Source of the DNA: Escherichia phage vB_EcoM_LNA4 | Sequence record: MZ311864.1 | Reading direction: 5' to 3' (one strand) | DNA length: 64,000 nt | Shown here: positions 37,497 through 64,000 of the stretch, one piece after another | Numbering within the stretch: position 1 is the first letter of the stretch | How the letters are laid out: the number at the start of each line of letters is the position of its first letter | Made by a program: the position numbers and the translations under genes | Notes under the pieces: generated by a model | What the model was told of the DNA's origin: nothing | The model's database searches: none | Seen by the model: the letters and a program-made list of their open reading frames with translations, nothing else

Positions 37497-38570
37497 TTAT
37501 TCTCCTTTGATATTCAGCAAGTTACGGACAGCTTCTTCGGCCTTTTGAATACGATCTTCGTAATCACTGCCGGAGATAACCACCACCTTGCTTGTATCGT
37601 AAGATGCTCTGATCATTGTGTCAAGCAAAGAATGTGTTTCTTTACGCTTTTCTGGAGTATCCTGCAAGCGAAGAGGATCAGCAACCCACGGAACCTCTGG
37701 GGTGAGGAACAAGAACAAGTCATAGAAATTGTAGCCCTCTTCACGGCTCAGTGTCCGGAACAGCAGATCTGAGTAATCGATCTTGTCTGCACAAACACCA
37801 GAGAAGTGTGTGATCAGATTTGTGGTGTCGGAGAACATTACCCCACGGTCACCCCAACCTGCCACCTCCATCTCCTTCAGGCGGTGCTCCATTGCAATAC
37901 GCAGGTAATCCTCACGGGTCATTGCAAACTCGCTTGAATGATACTCACGCTCACAGATCAGCCTTCCGATCTCAGGAATCCAGGCAGCACCGAACGTGTG
38001 TGCCAAGTGTTCGGTCATGGTCGTTTTTCCTGTGCTCTCTACACCAATGATAGCCACCTTCTTAATGAAGCGCTTACGTGCAGGCCACGACAAGTGGTAG
38101 AAATTCTTGTACGGGTCATTACGGATCATTGTGGCTGAGACAGGAACAGCTTTACGTTCTGCGTCGATAACAACATGCTTCGCTTCAGGGAAGAACTCAC
38201 TGAAGTAAGACTCGTACTCCGGCTCAGAAGAGAAAGCAAAGTCGTACTTAACGAAAGGTTGTTTTTCACGGATCAGTTTTGCATAAGCAGCACCGCCTTC
38301 AGGGTATCCGGGGATATTCGACTCATCAACGTAGTCAACCTTCACGTTATCCAGACCCTCATCGGCAATAACATCCAGCAGGTCACGATAGCGGTCAGCA
38401 AGGCCCAACTTTGGACGAATCCACTCTGGTTGAGCGTCAACAAATTTCTGGTCATACGACAGGAACAGATACAGGCAACTTACCTGCGAGGCCGCCTGGC
38501 GAATGAACTCAATATGCCCGTTGGTCAGCGGTGCAAATTTTCCGAAGATAAGGCCGCGAGTCATAGTCAT
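37497..38570 (-). CDS. nadR: NadR-like bifunctional NMN adenylyltransferase / ribosylnicotinamide kinase
   Basis: ATG at 38570 with AGAAGG RBS; nucleotidyltransferase motif GKFAPLTNGHIEFI; P-loop IGVESTGKTT in C-terminal half. Confidence 0.75.
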   Translation of the reverse strand: MTMTRGLIFGKFAPLTNGHIEFIRQAASQVSCLYLFLSYDQKFVDAQPEWIRPKLGLADRYRDLLDVIADEGLDNVKVDYVDESNIPGYPEGGAAYAKLIREKQPFVKYDFAFSSEPEYESYFSEFFPEAKHVVIDAERKAVPVSATMIRNDPYKNFYHLSWPARKRFIKKVAIIGVESTGKTTMTEHLAHTFGAAWIPEIGRLICEREYHSSEFAMTREDYLRIAMEHRLKEMEVAGWGDRGVMFSDTTNLITHFSGVCADKIDYSDLLFRTLSREEGYNFYDLFLFLTPEVPWVADPLRLQDTPEKRKETHSLLDTMIRASYDTSKVVVISGSDYEDRIQKAEEAVRNLLNIKGE

Positions 38571-38571
38571 A

Positions 38572-38892
38572 TTATTGATCCTTCTGGCATTTGTAGACTT
38601 GTGACACACGGGTCACAGACTTTTTGGTTGGGTTGATAGATGACCCCTGATACCAGCGAGACTCTTCGCTCAGAACATTCCCCACCTGAGCATCCTTTTT
38701 AGGGATCACTGTGTCGATGCAGGTCTCACCCATACTATCCTTCATATGGGACCAAATGCTCAGAGAAAAACGCTCGATCTTGTTGCACACCTCGACCTTG
38801 CACATAGGTTCGGTCTGGAAATCATCATCTTCTTCCGCATGGGCGGCTCCAACAAAAGCCATAGCCAGCAGAGCAATCGTTAATTTTTTCAT
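38572..38892 (-). CDS. secreted small protein
   Basis: Signal peptide MKKLTIALLAMAFVGAAHA; several Cys. Confidence 0.5.
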   Translation of the reverse strand: MKKLTIALLAMAFVGAAHAEEDDDFQTEPMCKVEVCNKIERFSLSIWSHMKDSMGETCIDTVIPKKDAQVGNVLSEESRWYQGSSINPTKKSVTRVSQVYKCQKDQ

Positions 38893-38925
38893 TTGAATCT
38901 CCTCTTGAGATTATTTGTTCAGGAT

Positions 38926-39132
38926 TTAGTAACGAGACCACTTCACGCGACCACCGTCGCAGATCAGTTTGTTCTCAACGACAACACCATCAGCACTGTT
39001 TGCGAGGCGTTGTTCACCGTTAGGCTTACAATTATGGGTGACGGTATCTGCGATGTCAACAACAATAAACACCGCAACAACAATTATTCCGACAACCACC
39101 AAGGGTTTAATCCAAGGCATGTGACCACGCAT
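38926..39132 (-). CDS. small membrane protein
   Basis: ATG at 39132 with GGAGA RBS; one hydrophobic helix. Confidence 0.4.
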   Translation of the reverse strand: MRGHMPWIKPLVVVGIIVVAVFIVVDIADTVTHNCKPNGEQRLANSADGVVVENKLICDGGRVKWSRY

Positions 39133-39142
39133 TTTATTCTCC

Positions 39143-39337
39143 TTACCAGTTTGAGGCATCAACAATCATTGCACCGAAAATCAGCACAAAGACTTCAAAC
39201 ATGAACATACACAATCCGCCGCCCAGAATGTCGTTAGTTTGTTGCTGGTAGTCTGCTGTATAAGCAAGACCAAGCGTGGTGAGCATTGTCAGTGCCATAA
39301 GGCACAGGACGGCACAAATAAAGTGCGAAAGTTTCAT
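39143..39337 (-). CDS. small membrane protein
   Basis: ATG at 39337 with GGAGG RBS; two hydrophobic helices. Confidence 0.4.
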   Translation of the reverse strand: MKLSHFICAVLCLMALTMLTTLGLAYTADYQQQTNDILGGGLCMFMFEVFVLIFGAMIVDASNW

Positions 39338-39403
39338 AGGTCCTCCGTTATTAACTCCCATAACAATAAAGCCCCTCAACCGTGAAGTCAAGGGGCTTTA
39401 AAA

Positions 39404-39802
39404 TTATTTTTTCAATCCAACAATCCAAGTTAACACGTTGTCTGGTAATTTGGTGATGGTTTTGTACATCTTCACTTCGTCCTTAGTGAGGACACGGATA
39501 TTCTCATCAACACCCACATTATTGTGGTAATCGAAATCAGCATCTCTCTCAATTAAGGTTAGATAATTCCCCTCGCCGGACTCTGGAACATTTCGATGAT
39601 GTTTAGACCAGTAGCGTTCAGCGATAAATAGATCCCCTTTTCGATCCCCCGCTAACTTGACGATAAACTTATTCATAAGCTTATCACGAAGAATTATAGA
39701 CAGGGCATGGGGGTCCAAACTATCAGCCACCCGGAGGACCTCAGCATCGCCCAGCTCCACATCCACGGTTTGCACCGTGGTTTGTGTGCCTTTTACCTTC
39801 AT
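39404..39802 (-). CDS. hypothetical protein
   Basis: 132 aa ORF. Confidence 0.45.
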   Translation of the reverse strand: MKVKGTQTTVQTVDVELGDAEVLRVADSLDPHALSIILRDKLMNKFIVKLAGDRKGDLFIAERYWSKHHRNVPESGEGNYLTLIERDADFDYHNNVGVDENIRVLTKDEVKMYKTITKLPDNVLTWIVGLKK

Positions 39803-39999
39803 GCCTTATCTCCAAGCAGACCTGGGGGGACAGGAAGGTCCTGCCAGTGTGTGACTGTGAGATTATTTCTGAAATCCCCATCATCCCAGCGTCCATCTTC
39901 TGAGCGGAAGGCGATCCACAGGTTCTCACCATCAGTGACCAGAACGTATTTACCCACTGAAGGCAACCAAACTTTGCATGAAACCCAATCAGTAAACAT
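39799..39999 (-). CDS. hypothetical small protein
   Basis: 66 aa, start overlaps upstream stop. Confidence 0.35.
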   Translation of the reverse strand: MFTDWVSCKVWLPSVGKYVLVTDGENLWIAFRSEDGRWDDGDFRNNLTVTHWQDLPVPPGLLGDKA

Positions 40000-54694: not shown

Positions 54695-54848
54695 GAATGA
54701 TCCTCGCTTTTTGAACTGAGAAGACAAACGTACCATGTTCCTCTACGTATTGTCTACCCATTTCTTCATCTTCGAAGATAAGAGTATCAACCTCAGACTT
54801 CACTGGCCTGTCCTTAACAGGCCGTGAGGTGCATACGATTAGCGCCAT
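54663..54848 (-). CDS. hypothetical small protein
   Basis: ATG overlaps RNA ligase stop (TAATG coupling). Confidence 0.35.
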   Translation of the reverse strand: MALIVCTSRPVKDRPVKSEVDTLIFEDEEMGRQYVEEHGTFVFSVQKARIIHAADTTEVRS

Positions 54849-55894
54849 TACAGAGGACTCTCGTTCAGCTTCTGCATGTACCAACCACGAGATTTGTTGC
54901 TGATGAACTTCGCAACATCCTTCATGGTCAGGGAGTTAGCTTCCAGAACATCGCCTTCTTCCTTGTTGATGTCACGGCTAACCCAGGCAATGAACTCACC
55001 GATCTTAGATTGGTCGAGACCAACTTCACCAAGAGCCTGCTCAAGGCGGTTCTCAGTCACAGCGTACTCAACGAACTCACGCATGTTCTGGAGCCGTACC
55101 GGGTCAACCTCTGCCAGGGTTTTAACCTTGGATACAGAGTGCTTCTCACCCTTCACTTTGAACCACAGGCCGGAGTCTTTAGCCAGTTCTGGTTGCAGCG
55201 GGGACCAAACGATACCCTCACCTACACCCTCAACACCAAAGTGTTTACCAACCGGGCAGGATGCTTCCACCTGCATCGTCAGGGTTGTCAGATCGTTCTG
55301 TACCTGCTCAGGTTCATTGAACGGAATATTCACGGACCAGAAACCAAAGTCAAGAACACTGAAGATCCGCTCTTGTGGCAGGCCAATGCCGTACTGGAAG
55401 TTTGGTGGCATCCAGTTCAGGGCGTTGCCCTCTTCATTGCGACCAACAGCAACACGGAAGATCGTGAAGAAAGGTTCAACCTCACTTACAGCCACACCTT
55501 TCTGGATACCACGACCAGCCCACTCACCAGCGATCTCAACCGGGAAGGAGAACGGTGTGCCGTTGCATTCGCATAGGTATTTAACCTGCTCCAGAAGTTC
55601 TTTGGTATCTTTACGCACCATGAACGCAGCAAAGCCGTTGTTGTCGTCACCGACTTGGACGATACGTTCTTTGGACTGGAAAACAACCTCATCTTCAGAG
55701 TGGAAGACAATGCTGCCATTGGTCCCGTGGATCTTAACCGTACCAATGTACGGGATCAGGTACTGATCCGGCGCAACAACCTTACGCTTGATGTTACCAT
55801 TCTCATCAATCCCGTCAAAGGTCAGACGATCATGGATTGCCTTAATCACTTGGCGGAACTGGTGAGTGCTTGGGTATTTAATAGGTTTAGTCAA
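54848..55894 (-). CDS. ATP-dependent RNA ligase, Rnl2 family
   Basis: Motif I KIHGTN, motif FGEWAGRGIQKGV, motif V WFKVKGEKH; TTG start at 55894 with AAGGAG RBS 7 nt upstream. Confidence 0.75.
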   Translation of the reverse strand: MTKPIKYPSTHQFRQVIKAIHDRLTFDGIDENGNIKRKVVAPDQYLIPYIGTVKIHGTNGSIVFHSEDEVVFQSKERIVQVGDDNNGFAAFMVRKDTKELLEQVKYLCECNGTPFSFPVEIAGEWAGRGIQKGVAVSEVEPFFTIFRVAVGRNEEGNALNWMPPNFQYGIGLPQERIFSVLDFGFWSVNIPFNEPEQVQNDLTTLTMQVEASCPVGKHFGVEGVGEGIVWSPLQPELAKDSGLWFKVKGEKHSVSKVKTLAEVDPVRLQNMREFVEYAVTENRLEQALGEVGLDQSKIGEFIAWVSRDINKEEGDVLEANSLTMKDVAKFISNKSRGWYMQKLNESPL

Positions 55895-56276
55895 CTTTAG
55901 ACTCCTTTTTAGGTGCAATCGCTTGTGTGATCAGGTTGTCGATGTCGTCAACCCACTCTGGGGTGCGTAGGAACAGCATCAGATTCATTGTCTGAAGCAA
56001 ATACGCACTGTTTTGTGTGATCGCATAGATATCGTAACCATCTACCAGCAGTCGTTCAACTGTCGATGTACGGATGGGCTTATTATCAAAGCCACGGCCT
56101 TGATGATCACGACCATCTAAAAAACCACAAATACAACGAGGCCAGACCTCTACGTGGGGACGGGCATTAACCACCACCCCAGCAAAGAGCTTACCACCGA
56201 TGAATTTTGGTTCAGGAACAGTCTGTGCCAGACGAATTGGATCACCAACACCAACCTCAGATTTACTCATTGTCAT
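55887..56276 (-). CDS. hypothetical protein
   Basis: ATG at 56276 with GAGGGG RBS. Confidence 0.4.
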   Translation of the reverse strand: MTMSKSEVGVGDPIRLAQTVPEPKFIGGKLFAGVVVNARPHVEVWPRCICGFLDGRDHQGRGFDNKPIRTSTVERLLVDGYDIYAITQNSAYLLQTMNLMLFLRTPEWVDDIDNLITQAIAPKKESKVD

Positions 56277-56967: not shown

Positions 56968-57149
56968 TTCCAGTTCCCATTGAAAAGCCGCAGCACCAAG
57001 AGGTTCATGAAGTACAGGGGCCAAAGCAGGCCCATGAACACACCACCAAGAAGATCCATAGTGTCTAATCTCCAGAATTGCTGCGCTCTTTTCATGAAGA
57101 TATAAAACCCTACAAATGCGAACAGAAGATAGGTAATCCCAACCATCAC
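56964..57149 (-). CDS. small membrane protein
   Basis: 61 aa, two hydrophobic helices. Confidence 0.35.
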   Translation of the reverse strand: MMVGITYLLFAFVGFYIFMKRAQQFWRLDTMDLLGGVFMGLLWPLYFMNLLVLRLFNGNWK

Positions 57150-57637
57150 TTTTTCTCCGGAAGGATATAAACTGTTACATCACAATCCCAGAAAACAGAT
57201 TTGATCATCGCTTCAATGACGTTCCAGTCACCACCTGCAAGACCAGCACCGATTTTCGGGAAGCCGATTTTGTAGTCAGCCATAGAGCCGTCTGTAAAGC
57301 TCTGTAAGGCCTTCTTCATCTGATCCAACGAATCATACAGGGCATTGTAATCGAGGTCACGTAGGCCCTGTTTACGGCGATTATAACCATATTGCGAATA
57401 CAGATTAAATCCTGCGAGAGATCCGTCCTTCATGAAGGCCACAGTGAAGGTCCCAAGTTTGGCTTTATCACCTTTCTCGGTCTTCAGATCCGCAGCGTAC
57501 ATTTTAGGGAACGCTTCTTTGATCAGTGGAGCTATACCGCTACCCATTGTGCAATAACAATTGCAGCCATGCGCAAAAACATTAACCTCACCAGATTTCA
57601 CAGCCTCAATTAGGTCGCCTACTTTATACTTAAGCAT
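57146..57637 (-). CDS. macrodomain protein, TARG1/DarG-like ADP-ribosyl hydrolase family
   Basis: NVFAHGCNCYCTMGSGIAPLIKEAFP and KIGFPKIGAGLAGGDWNVIEAMIKSVF resemble TARG1-type macrodomain core motifs; GGAGGA RBS. Confidence 0.6.
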   Translation of the reverse strand: MLKYKVGDLIEAVKSGEVNVFAHGCNCYCTMGSGIAPLIKEAFPKMYAADLKTEKGDKAKLGTFTVAFMKDGSLAGFNLYSQYGYNRRKQGLRDLDYNALYDSLDQMKKALQSFTDGSMADYKIGFPKIGAGLAGGDWNVIEAMIKSVFWDCDVTVYILPEKK

Positions 57638-61875: not shown

Positions 61876-62231
61876 ACTCGATTCTCATCACACCAGTTGT
61901 AAAGATCTTTCATGATGTCGTTGAACTCCCGCATCGGTGTATAATGCCGGATCGGATCTGCATCATGCCCCTCTGCCTCACATTCCGCAATGGAAGCCTG
62001 CCACTCAAGATATGTAGGGACATCCCGGAAATAGATTATAATATCAACAAGGTCTGCATCACACTGAACGCTGTCGTAGCTTGCCTTGTTCGGGAATTTA
62101 AATTCCAGACGACGAGCAATCTCTTTCGCAAGCTCATGAACTGTTTTATCAGTCCAATCTTCAGGGCCACACTCGCCGTTTCGCTTTCTCCACACATCAT
62201 CAATGCGGAGGGTTTGTTTCCACTCAGCCAT
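61860..62231 (-). CDS. hypothetical protein
   Basis: 123 aa acidic ORF. Confidence 0.45.
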   Translation of the reverse strand: MAEWKQTLRIDDVWRKRNGECGPEDWTDKTVHELAKEIARRLEFKFPNKASYDSVQCDADLVDIIIYFRDVPTYLEWQASIAECEAEGHDADPIRHYTPMREFNDIMKDLYNWCDENRVWVEK

Positions 62232-62712
62232 TGGTTATTTTCCTCAATTCAAATTCGTCACCATACCCGATCATATGCCCTTTGGCAGTGATCACCTTTT
62301 CTCCGAACACGCTGCCAGTGCATTTACCAATGAAAACTTCCGGCATATCTTCCTCAGACAGGAGAATATCTACCTTGAACTTGCCTTGATAATGTCTAGC
62401 ATTGTAATGTGGCCCTTTATCATCTGTCTTGTGCCAGCATTTGCCGTTCCAGCGATATTTATTGTGCTTGTACCATGTATATGATACCCAGTTATCCTGC
62501 GCTATATGGTCCACCTGAACAGTAATCAGTCGTCCTGTGCTGCGAAGTAGATCGTCATATTGCTTTTCGTATAACTTCGCACGATTTTTCATATCGTTGT
62601 AATACTGTTGATAGCGATCCGCCCTGTTGACCATAACCTTGAGGATACTCTCGATTGGTGTGCCTTTCTCAAGATGTTCTTCATAAAGCTGTTTGCTTGA
62701 TTTGATATTCAT
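62224..62712 (-). CDS. hypothetical protein
   Basis: 162 aa; AAGGAG RBS. Confidence 0.5.
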   Translation of the reverse strand: MNIKSSKQLYEEHLEKGTPIESILKVMVNRADRYQQYYNDMKNRAKLYEKQYDDLLRSTGRLITVQVDHIAQDNWVSYTWYKHNKYRWNGKCWHKTDDKGPHYNARHYQGKFKVDILLSEEDMPEVFIGKCTGSVFGEKVITAKGHMIGYGDEFELRKITNG

Positions 62713-62921
62713 TTAAGCTCCTTAATGGATTCCAGGTCAAGGTAGTCATCACCACCCACCACTTTCCCGTCAGTTTTGCGATACTTTACGACTTTTCCGG
62801 TCTCTGAATGCTGGTAAGACATCCAGTAACGAGGCGTTTCGCGAAGTTTCTCAGTCCACGCCCAGCCGAGGCGGGGTTTTTTGACTGTACCTTTGTGGGT
62901 GTAACCTTGATTTCTGGACAT
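62709..62921 (-). CDS. hypothetical small basic protein
   Basis: 70 aa; AGGAG RBS; stop overlaps downstream start (ATGA). Confidence 0.45.
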   Translation of the reverse strand: MSRNQGYTHKGTVKKPRLGWAWTEKLRETPRYWMSYQHSETGKVVKYRKTDGKVVGGDDYLDLESIKELK

Positions 62922-63142
62922 TCTTTGCTCCTGTATAGAGTCACTTTGTAAAGATTCTGATCGTAAATCAAAAAAGGCCTTGACACCGGACCGACAGACC
63001 TGTATCTACGATTCACCTGAATGTAGCCGCGCTCCTCCAACTTGAGAACGAGCTTACTTACTTTCCATGAAGGAATTCCCAGCAGGAACCCCATCTGTTT
63101 CTGAGTATACTTGTTTGTGCGGAGCAGTGTCAATAGATTCAT
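62786..63142 (-). CDS. putative HTH DNA-binding protein (3' extent uncertain)
   Basis: N-terminal helix-turn-helix-like segment LRTNKYTQKQMGFLLGIPSWKVSKLVLKLEERGYI; C-terminal half overlaps another ORF. Confidence 0.35.
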   Translation of the reverse strand: MNLLTLLRTNKYTQKQMGFLLGIPSWKVSKLVLKLEERGYIQVNRRYRSVGPVSRPFLIYDQNLYKVTLYRSKECPEIKVTPTKVQSKNPASAGRGLRNFAKRLVTGCLTSIQRPEKS

Positions 63143-63648
63143 AATTGCGACAGCATGTTGATTGCTTCGTGATGTTCTTTCATCTTTGTCAGACGAAGAT
63201 ACATGTCATGGTACTTACGAATACGAAGCAAGTCTTTATCGCTAAGTCCTTTCAGACGACGAACATCAGAGTTGTGTCGCAGGTCTGCGAGCTTAACACG
63301 GATTGCATCGTAGTTTCTTGCAATACCCTGGAAATACTCCTCCGGTGTCTGATTTGGTGTTTTCGTCAAAAGAACCACAGCATCTTTAACACGATTAGAG
63401 AAGCCCAACAGCACTAGGTCAGCAGCCGTCACATCGGTATCTTCCACCACATCGTGAAGAGCCGCGATAGCCATAAGCTGAAAATCATCGCTCTTCAGGT
63501 AGTGCATCACCTTTAGCGGGTGGAGGATGTAGGGGTTACCACCCTTATCTTTCTGATTCAGGTGTCCTTCTGCTGCAATCTTGATAGCCAGGGCAAGTTC
63601 TTGCGCCGGGGTTAAAACTGGAATCGTGGAATTGTAAGTTCGTACCAT
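63139..63648 (-). CDS. HD-domain small alarmone hydrolase (SpoT/Mesh1-like (p)ppGpp hydrolase family)
   Basis: EGHLNQKDKGGNPYILHPLKV...AIAALHDVVEDTDVT matches HD-domain ppGpp hydrolase pattern; GGAG RBS. Confidence 0.65.
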   Translation of the reverse strand: MVRTYNSTIPVLTPAQELALAIKIAAEGHLNQKDKGGNPYILHPLKVMHYLKSDDFQLMAIAALHDVVEDTDVTAADLVLLGFSNRVKDAVVLLTKTPNQTPEEYFQGIARNYDAIRVKLADLRHNSDVRRLKGLSDKDLLRIRKYHDMYLRLTKMKEHHEAINMLSQL

Positions 63649-63986
63649 CTTTGTTGCTCCATCATGTTAAAAGGTTTGATCTTGAGTGTATCAAAACCAT
63701 CAATGTTGTCAAGCCAGAATTCATCTTTATATCCAGCCATTTCCATCATCATTAACTCTTCCGGGCTGGGTGTCTCCCCTGCCATCATGTTTCTGAGTCT
63801 TTCATCCCAGCGGAAAGTGAATAATGTCTCATTTTTATTGCAAATTAATAGTGCTTCACGGGCATTTTTAATCTTAACACTACGATCACGTAGATGAAAC
63901 ACACTGTGACCAATGTGATTACACTGGACATCAAAGTTATCCCTGTCTCTGAAGTCACAAAACACCAGGAGATCACCGATAGACAA
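63612..63986 (-). CDS. hypothetical protein (start uncertain)
   Basis: 124 aa ORF overlapping start of hydrolase gene. Confidence 0.35.
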   Translation of the reverse strand: MSIGDLLVFCDFRDRDNFDVQCNHIGHSVFHLRDRSVKIKNAREALLICNKNETLFTFRWDERLRNMMAGETPSPEELMMMEMAGYKDEFWLDNIDGFDTLKIKPFNMMEQQRWYELTIPRFQF

Positions 63987-64000
63987 GGATATACCGAGAA

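Follow-up and report, generated by a model that had tools for sequence, protein, structure and literature searches.

The 64,000-nt stretch of DNA from Escherichia phage vB_EcoM_LNA4 analyzed here (sequence record MZ311864.1; hereafter the window) encodes a stand-alone HD-domain hydrolase of the RelA/SpoT (RSH) superfamily, i.e., a small alarmone hydrolase (SAH). We consider, with good confidence, that the whole of our results is best explained by a stand-alone SAH of the PbcSpo/Aph1-like kind, which would cleave adenosine 3′-pyrophosphates and thereby undo the products of toxic small alarmone synthetases (toxSAS). A preliminary description of this gene, made from the sequence, had already proposed a stand-alone phage HD-domain SAH, and this reading is borne out by PHROG, PDB, residue and fold matches. 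It is supported and correct, but the hydrolase has been known since 2020 through its orthologue in Salmonella phage PVP-SE1.

The open reading frame was recovered at exactly the coordinates and the length given in the preliminary description (Table 1), on the minus strand and with a GGAG ribosome-binding site; its start and stop codons are the ATG at 63648-63646 and the TGA at 63141-63139. No further in-frame ATG, GTG or TTG was read in the hydrolase ORF ahead of Met48. The product is a single-domain protein in which the HD domain covers residues 14-168, without synthetase, TGS or ACT domains. Note that public databases already contain an identical protein sequence, encoded on a 147,613-bp contig.

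Table 1. Positions of the hydrolase gene, of its diagnostic codons and of other features discussed in the text (numbering of the window)
Feature	Position	Strand	Remarks
SAH coding sequence (stop included)	63139..63648	-	169 aa; ORF list and translation
Shine-Dalgarno GGAG	63657..63660	-	8 nt 5′ of the hydrolase ATG; read from the sequence
Codons H29-H43 (Q32, D34, first metal ligand H43)	63520..63564	-	Alignments to Aph1 and RelSeq
Codons H65-D66-V-V-E69-D70 (HD metal ligands and ED catalytic pair)	63439..63456	-	RelSeq H77, D78, E81, D82; Aph1 H53, D54, E57, D58
Codons D122-Y146 (last metal ligand D122, ribose-contact N126, Aph-signature D128, R131, K145, Y146)	63211..63285	-	Aph1 D110, N114, D116, R119, K133, Y134; all invariant (58 sequences)
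HTH-like ORF, 118 aa	62786..63142	-	ATG 63142-63140 overlaps the hydrolase TGA as ATGA; context, no conserved partner
Upstream gene, 3′ part (PVP-SE1 gp219 homologue)	63612..64000	-	Cut by the window end; 37-nt overlap with the hydrolase start; same leftward operon
NadR-like adenylyltransferase	37497..38609		

The family assignment was obtained from profile, sequence and structure searches. PHROG 990 ('metal-dependent phosphohydrolase') matches the hydrolase at E = 2e-67, and NCBIfam TIGR00691 (spoT_relA) gives a partial match at E = 4.5e-15 across the first 85 positions of the profile; 4092 relatives were found in the databases at E ≤ 1e-5. When all PDB chains were searched with phmmer, the best match was 7SMG (Aph1, the '(p)ppApp hydrolase' of Bacteroides caccae), with E = 4.5e-26 and 94.7 bits over residues 18-159, followed by the hydrolase domains of Rel, RelA and SpoT at about 1e-10 (43 bits or less) and by MESH1 at about 1e-7 (34 bits, versus 95 for Aph1). 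The PHROG and 7SMG matches and the number of relatives far exceed what chance would give. A family profile built from 58 relatives gave 129.9 bits for Aph1 versus 61 for the best (p)ppGpp hydrolase, RelSeq, and its full-length match spans residues 4-148 of Aph1. The Pfam HD_4 profile (PF13328), a search that the preliminary description had put forward as a check, stayed below its gathering score (21.3 versus 27.2 bits, E = 2.5e-4), with residues 21-75 alone being aligned. Many relatives at 54–68% identity carry a precomputed PF13328 match, and we attribute the shortfall to the divergence of the C-terminal half and not to an absent domain. In view of the agreement between the PHROG, NCBIfam, PDB and fold searches, this sub-threshold score was not counted against the family call.

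The catalytic residues lead to the same superfamily. The histidine and aspartate pattern claimed from the sequence is found at H29, H43, D54/D55, H65-D66 and E69-D70, with D122 and N126 further on, and pairwise alignment with RelSeq (1VJ7) matched H43, H65, D66, E69, D70, D122 and N126 to H53, H77, D78, E81, D82, D144 and N148, respectively. Every catalytic residue of RelSeq is thus present, whereas the preliminary description had named a lack of the catalytic His and Asp residues on alignment as a ground for refutation. Across the 58-sequence family alignment, H29, Q32, D34, H43, H65, D66, D70, D122 and N126 are invariant, and E69 is conserved in at least 90% of the sequences.

The AlphaFold2 model computed from the alignment of the 58 relatives (mean pLDDT 93.7, pTM 0.89) predicts an all-helical HD domain, in which DSSP recognized 9 helical elements, one of them of 4 residues. 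In the Foldseek comparison of this model with the PDB, the four Aph1 chains of 7SMG came first (target-normalized TM 0.90–0.92, rmsd of ~ 2 Å, 33–34% identity), then MESH1 (TM ~ 0.65), and then PaSAH, Rel, SpoT and RelH; each of the top 39 PDB matches (E ≤ 2.5e-3) is the structure of an RSH hydrolase domain. The Aph fold is compact and devoid of the extra N- and C-terminal helices found in (p)ppGpp hydrolases, and here the model gives a mixed picture: its TM is 0.92 to Aph1, versus ~ 0.65 to MESH1 and PaSAH, but its last helix, at residues 137-168, is longer than the Aph1 counterpart.

The next-best folds after Aph1 are MESH1 structures with NADPH and PAPS, and the true substrate could accordingly be looked for among other 3′-phosphorylated adenosine compounds (NADPH, PAPS or pAp), as reported for MESH1, in which case the enzyme would serve the NAD or nucleotide metabolism of the phage instead of defense evasion. 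NAD salvage genes do occur in the phage lineage (NAMPT, PRPP synthetase, NMN adenylyltransferase, PnuC and Sir2), and a NadR-like adenylyltransferase lies in the window (Table 1). We nevertheless regard such a role as very unlikely: MESH1 matches much more weakly than Aph1 (34 versus 95 bits, TM 0.65 versus 0.92), the hydrolase gene is not next to the NAD genes, and the phenotype demonstrated for the PVP-SE1 orthologue is toxSAS neutralization.

The reading of an enzyme acting on adenosine 3′-pyrophosphates draws on the comparison with Aph1, which of all solved structures matches best in sequence, profile and fold. Aph1 forms a tetramer, hydrolyses pApp, ppApp and pppApp and displays no detectable ppGpp activity; its signature comprises D24, R96, D116, R119, K133 and Y134, of which R96 was placed by the authors away from the active site and the other five near it, and the residues shown to set its specificity are D24 and R119, as ppGpp is hydrolysed once both are mutated (D24R/R119A) (Ahmad et al. 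2023, PNAS 120:e2213771120, PMC10083569). Five of these six residues are kept in the window protein (D24, D116, R119, K133 and Y134 of Aph1 being D34, D128, R131, K145 and Y146) and are invariant in the 58 relatives, while R96 is not kept and corresponds to G108. Moreover, D34 sits where R44 of RelSeq, or R43 of TtRel, contacts guanine; this Arg is absent from the family, and Asp34 is invariant in it. The query by which Ahmad et al. defined the Aph family was the C-terminal segment Y90-E143 of Aph1, with the HD motif excluded, and the C-terminal segments of Aph1 and of the window protein share 47% identity over 34 residues (BLASTP, E = 2e-8). On the basis of the signature residues, D34 and this C-terminal match, the protein was filed as Aph-like and is predicted from its residues to be specific for adenosine. 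Its likely substrates would be adenosine 3′-pyrophosphates, namely (p)ppApp and tRNA with a pyrophosphorylated CCA end. When 12 Aph1 homologues were purified, all 12 hydrolysed ppApp and 2 had modest ppGpp activity (Ahmad et al. 2023, PMC10083569); because of these 2 homologues, ppGpp hydrolysis may also exist as a side activity of the window protein.

The 'SpoT/Mesh1-type' label of the preliminary description is consequently accurate as far as an RSH-type HD hydrolase is meant, but the protein is Aph1-like, with 130 versus 61 bits in the profile search and Asp34 in place of the guanine-contacting Arg. The same description had suggested that the protein could blunt the host stringent response, that is, that it would be chiefly a (p)ppGpp hydrolase lowering host ppGpp during infection. 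The window protein indeed shares the superfamily, the HD fold and the H..HD..ED..D..N catalytic constellation with the hydrolase domains of Rel, SpoT and metazoan MESH1; the partial spoT_relA match and the modest ppGpp hydrolysis by 2 of the 12 Aph1 homologues go in the same direction, and some relatives are named '(p)ppGpp synthase/HD superfamily hydrolase' in their source databases. However, the similarity to Rel, SpoT and MESH1 is much lower than that to Aph1 (at most 43 bits with the single sequence, at most 61 bits with the profile, TM of about 0.6–0.7), the family profile is more than two times closer to Aph1 than to any (p)ppGpp hydrolase, and the window protein, unlike Rel and SpoT, has neither synthetase nor regulatory domains. 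In addition to Asp34 at the position of the guanine-contacting Arg, R131 corresponds to Aph1 R119, whose removal together with D24R is needed before Aph1 hydrolyses ppGpp; both D34 and R131 are invariant in the family, and Aph1 itself is without detectable ppGpp activity. A main role against the stringent response therefore appears unlikely to us.

The preference for an enzyme that reverses toxSAS products comes from the PVP-SE1 orthologue. The window protein and PVP-SE1 gp220 (YP_004894027) are identical at 157 of 169 positions (93%, full length). Using the family profile in an unfiltered hmmsearch of all six-frame ORFs of PVP-SE1, gp220 alone was retrieved (E = 1.4e-81, the next ORF having E = 1.9), and tblastn pointed to one place in the PVP-SE1 genome; the same profile search returned one SAH-like ORF from the six-frame ORFs of the window. 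As the sole SAH-like ORF of PVP-SE1, gp220 is therefore the 'PVP-SE1 SAH (PbcSpo)' tested by Jimmy et al. (2020, PNAS 117:10500, PMC7229694), who showed that its co-expression in E. coli neutralizes five toxSAS (CapRel, PhRel2, FaRel2, PhRel and FaRel). Both stand-alone phage SAHs tested in that study neutralize all five, and the authors proposed that incoming phages encoding such hydrolases might bypass alarmone-based defense (Jimmy et al. 2020, PMC7229694). What the preliminary description had offered as a possibility, that the protein could neutralize toxSAS modules, has thus been shown experimentally for an orthologue at 93% identity. The window hydrolase would likewise belong to the PbcSpo subfamily (Atkinson/Hauryliuk nomenclature, in which subfamilies are assigned by HMMs and phylogeny; Atkinson 2011, Jimmy et al. 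2020), an assignment inherited from that given by these authors to the PVP-SE1 protein. The 12 substitutions between the two proteins include none at catalytic or signature positions, where every residue is identical, and the operon order is also alike (gp219 homologue, SAH and 118-aa HTH-like ORF, with the same 4-nt overlap), whereas the genes further downstream differ as annotated. In the literature searched, co-expression rescue is reported for gp220 and its in vitro substrate specificity is unreported; this literature also yielded neither a phage SAH raising plating efficiency on a toxSAS-bearing host nor the phenotype of a phage knock-out.

The products removed by such enzymes include modified tRNA. 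[quoted passage not shown] 2021). CapRel from phage SJ46, Enterobacter chengduensis and Klebsiella pneumoniae protects E. coli from phages via tRNA pyrophosphorylation, and the CapRel-bearing Enterobacter and Klebsiella are host genera of the phage clade to which the window belongs. ATfaRel, the type IV antitoxin of the FaRel toxSAS of Cellulomonas marina, which we compared by description and not by alignment, is a PbcSpo member like the PVP-SE1 enzyme; it neutralizes the same five toxSAS and, in vitro, makes FaRel2-pyrophosphorylated tRNA fit for aminoacylation again. In contrast to the window gene, which has no adjacent toxin, it lies inside a three-gene toxin-antitoxin operon beside its toxin. 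The SAH of Salmonella phage SSU5, a common laboratory detoxifying tool, is also a stand-alone phage SAH neutralizing all tested toxSAS, but it belongs to the PaSpo subfamily and not to PbcSpo, and SSU5 is a temperate phage-plasmid.

Megablast of positions 62000-64000 against phage genomes (56 records matched) placed the window in Seunavirus, as a PVP-SE1/4MG/GAP31/EC152-like myophage. The best match was Enterobacter phage EC152 (92% identity over 97% of the query), and identities were 90.6% for Cronobacter phage GAP31, 88.6% for Salmonella phages PVP-SE1 and SSE121, and 85.3% for Escherichia phage 4MG; the top-matching phages are all Vequintavirinae, of the genus Seunavirus or its neighbors. 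The hydrolase is gene 2 of a leftward operon whose gene 1 is cut by the window end. The start of this operon is beyond the window end, and its promoter is thus outside the view; promoter-like sites at 59–64 kb were no commoner than in shuffled sequences in the promoter and terminator scan. Further on, the leftward block encodes a MoxR-like ATPase, a macro-domain protein, an RNA ligase, SleB, rIIA/rIIB, helicases and DNA polymerase A. The upstream gene carries the PHROG label 'thymidylate kinase' and was considered as a functional partner of the hydrolase; because this label has no Pfam or PDB sequence support, no conclusion on such a partnership was drawn.

The gene neighborhood also bears on a role as an immunity enzyme, by which the hydrolase would protect the phage against a (p)ppApp-synthetase toxin of its own, a role known precisely from its nearest relative of solved structure, Aph1, which counters the MuF-fused Apk2 of a Bacteroides prophage. 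Aph1 and the window protein have in common the HD metal site, the Asn at N114/N126, five of the six signature residues, an apparently compact single HD domain and a phage origin. They differ in that their identity is 33–34%, that the R96 equivalent is not conserved, and that the window protein exceeds Aph1 by 26 aa and has 13 additional N-terminal residues and a longer last helix. The Aph1 gene belongs to a temperate phage and adjoins Tis1 and the cognate MuF-Apk2 toxin; the window gene stands alone in a lytic myophage. The genes flanking the hydrolase are not toxin-like, the annotation of the whole PVP-SE1 genome lists neither an RSH synthetase nor a MuF protein, the PVP-SE1 enzyme was called a 'stand-alone' phage SAH by Jimmy et al., and just 0.4% of Aph homologues have a MuF gene nearby (Ahmad et al. 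2023, PMC10083569). A phmmer search with the E. coli RelA synthetase domain against the six-frame ORFs of PVP-SE1 and of the window gave a best E of 2.8; this search has low power and is weak as a test, since the degenerate HD domain of RelA likewise failed to find the SAH. A type IV antitoxin or Aph1-type immunity gene is therefore not supported, with no RSH-synthetase toxin adjacent (the neighbors being the gp219 homologue and the HTH-like ORF) or annotated in PVP-SE1, and we hold this explanation to be extremely improbable.

Returning to an SAH directed at the products of host toxSAS, a mechanism can be proposed from the Aph1 and RelSeq comparisons. The all-helical and apparently compact HD domain would hold one divalent metal (Mn2+ or Mg2+) via H43, H65, D66 and D122, and E69/D70 together with N126 would complete the catalytic site, while D34, D128, R131, K145 and Y146 would line the pocket as in Aph1 and favor adenine over guanine. 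The enzyme would remove the 3′-pyrophosphate of (p)ppApp originating from toxic alarmone synthetases and very probably also that carried by A76 in tRNA which toxSAS of the CapRel, FaRel2 and PhRel types have pyrophosphorylated. Expressed, presumably early, from a leftward operon of non-structural genes, it would allow a lytic Seunavirus to reverse what toxSAS abortive-infection systems produce and so may act in counter-defense during infection; Enterobacter, Klebsiella and the Salmonella/E. coli phage-plasmid SJ46 are known to carry systems of this kind.

A narrower version of this mechanism can be put forward tentatively, and we judge it slightly more apt to fail than to hold. The enzyme would, in infection, be strictly adenosine-specific and leave ppGpp untouched, its physiological substrate being host and phage tRNA with an A76 3′-pyrophosphate from CapRel-type toxins of Enterobacteriaceae, so that it would be a dedicated tRNA 3′-end 'de-pyrophosphorylase' beside the RNA-end repair genes of the lineage. 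These other genes comprise a CCA-adding enzyme with an HD domain, an RlaP-family nucleotidyltransferase, two RNA ligases and ~ 24 tRNAs; the tRNA scan found no tRNA genes within the window, the tRNA cluster of the lineage being outside it. The de-pyrophosphorylase role has been proposed in the literature, in which no demonstration for a lytic phage in an infection setting was found.

The preliminary description had also noted a coupled HTH-like gene immediately following the hydrolase. The ATGA overlap is real here, but the pairing is confined to the phage clade of the window and often broken, and does not form a conserved two-gene module. Weak winged-HTH profile matches were obtained for the 118-aa ORF (HTH_Crp_2, TrmB and MarR_2, E = 0.015–0.026, all under threshold), and its homologue in phage 4MG is annotated as HTH; as the AlphaFold2 single-sequence model of this ORF was unusable (pLDDT 41.7), the HTH call rests on these three matches and on the 4MG annotation. 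Substitutions in the ORF fall mostly at third codon positions over the first 74 codons but not over the last 44–45. Among phage records, the HTH-like ORF occurs in 34 versus 265 for the hydrolase; several Klebsiella phages with the hydrolase have a shortened HTH-like ORF of which only the tail matches, and in phage EC152 the two genes are separated by an inserted hydrophobic ORF of 88 aa. This distribution, with its truncations and the EC152 insertion, ruled out an SAH and HTH pair as a conserved module.

Altogether, phage SAHs are the simplest known viral way to erase the toxSAS product, be it (p)ppApp or pyrophosphorylated tRNA. The PVP-SE1 orthologue has already been used to establish this erasure, and the window gene, as another copy, therefore adds no new principle. 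Its practical value would lie instead in the residues, which predict specificity for adenosine over guanosine for a gene that the genome annotations of its relatives still label 'metal-dependent phosphohydrolase'.

The HTH-like ORF (62786..63142) that follows the small alarmone hydrolase gene shares its 3' end with a second, 70-aa ORF read in a different frame, codons 1-45 of the latter being superimposed on the final 44-45 codons of the former (62786-62921, minus strand). Both ORFs were intact in four of four phages, i.e., the window, Escherichia phage 4MG, Salmonella phage PVP-SE1 and Enterobacter phage EC152, and variable sites were counted by codon position across this same set. Within the overlap, the third codon position of the 70-aa frame coincides with the second of the HTH frame, and 13 of the 18 variable sites fell there. 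In the part of the HTH-like ORF ahead of the overlap, third positions of the HTH frame accounted for 29 of the 41 variable sites. By this comparison, the 70-aa ORF is the constrained frame in the overlap, and the tail of the HTH-like ORF looks like unconstrained read-through.

Features of the window around the hydrolase gene and in the NAD salvage set
Feature	Position	Strand	Remarks
70-aa ORF	62709..62921	minus	phrog_6990; own AGGAG-N7-ATG
Upstream gene, 3' part	63612-64000, cut by window end	minus	full-length PVP-SE1 homologue at 38790-39818 of sequence L006
Promoter-like site TTGACA-16-TACACT with upstream TG	63685-63712	minus	within upstream gene
NadR-like protein (cytidylyltransferase-like and AAA_28 domains)	37497-38609	minus	matches PVP-SE1 NMN adenylyltransferase

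Note that the annotation of this region has gaps in the relatives. The conserved 70-aa ORF is without annotation in PVP-SE1 (sequence L002, 2998-3258), in which gp222 is drawn longer, upstream. In EC152, the HTH-like gene is not annotated, and an additional 88-aa hydrophobic ORF (sequence L003, 10139-10405) separates it from the hydrolase gene.

On the other side, the start of the hydrolase gene is overlapped over 37 nt by the upstream gene, which both RefSeq and PHROG 10920 label 'thymidylate kinase'. For the full-length PVP-SE1 homologue (342 aa), however, searches yielded no Pfam match, nor any PDB sequence at E<=0.1, and this label is unsupported. The promoter-like site lies ~40 nt ahead of the hydrolase start, but the hydrolase region contains sites of this type no more often than shuffled sequence does.

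Regarding the wider gene content, the NadR-like protein of the window belongs with a NAD salvage set, of which NAMPT, PRPP synthetase, PnuC and Sir2 are found elsewhere in the lineage. Moreover, the genes of the window include one for an RNA ligase and one for a macro-domain protein (54848-55918 and 57146-57637, minus strand), and elsewhere the PVP-SE1 genome encodes an HD-domain CCA-adding enzyme, an RlaP-family nucleotidyltransferase and RNA ligase 1 (loci listed: gp159, gp166, gp105 and gp239), together with 24 tRNA genes. This RNA-end repair and modification gene set is a notable trait of the lineage and is consistent with a tRNA-protecting role of the hydrolase, although the connection is only circumstantial.
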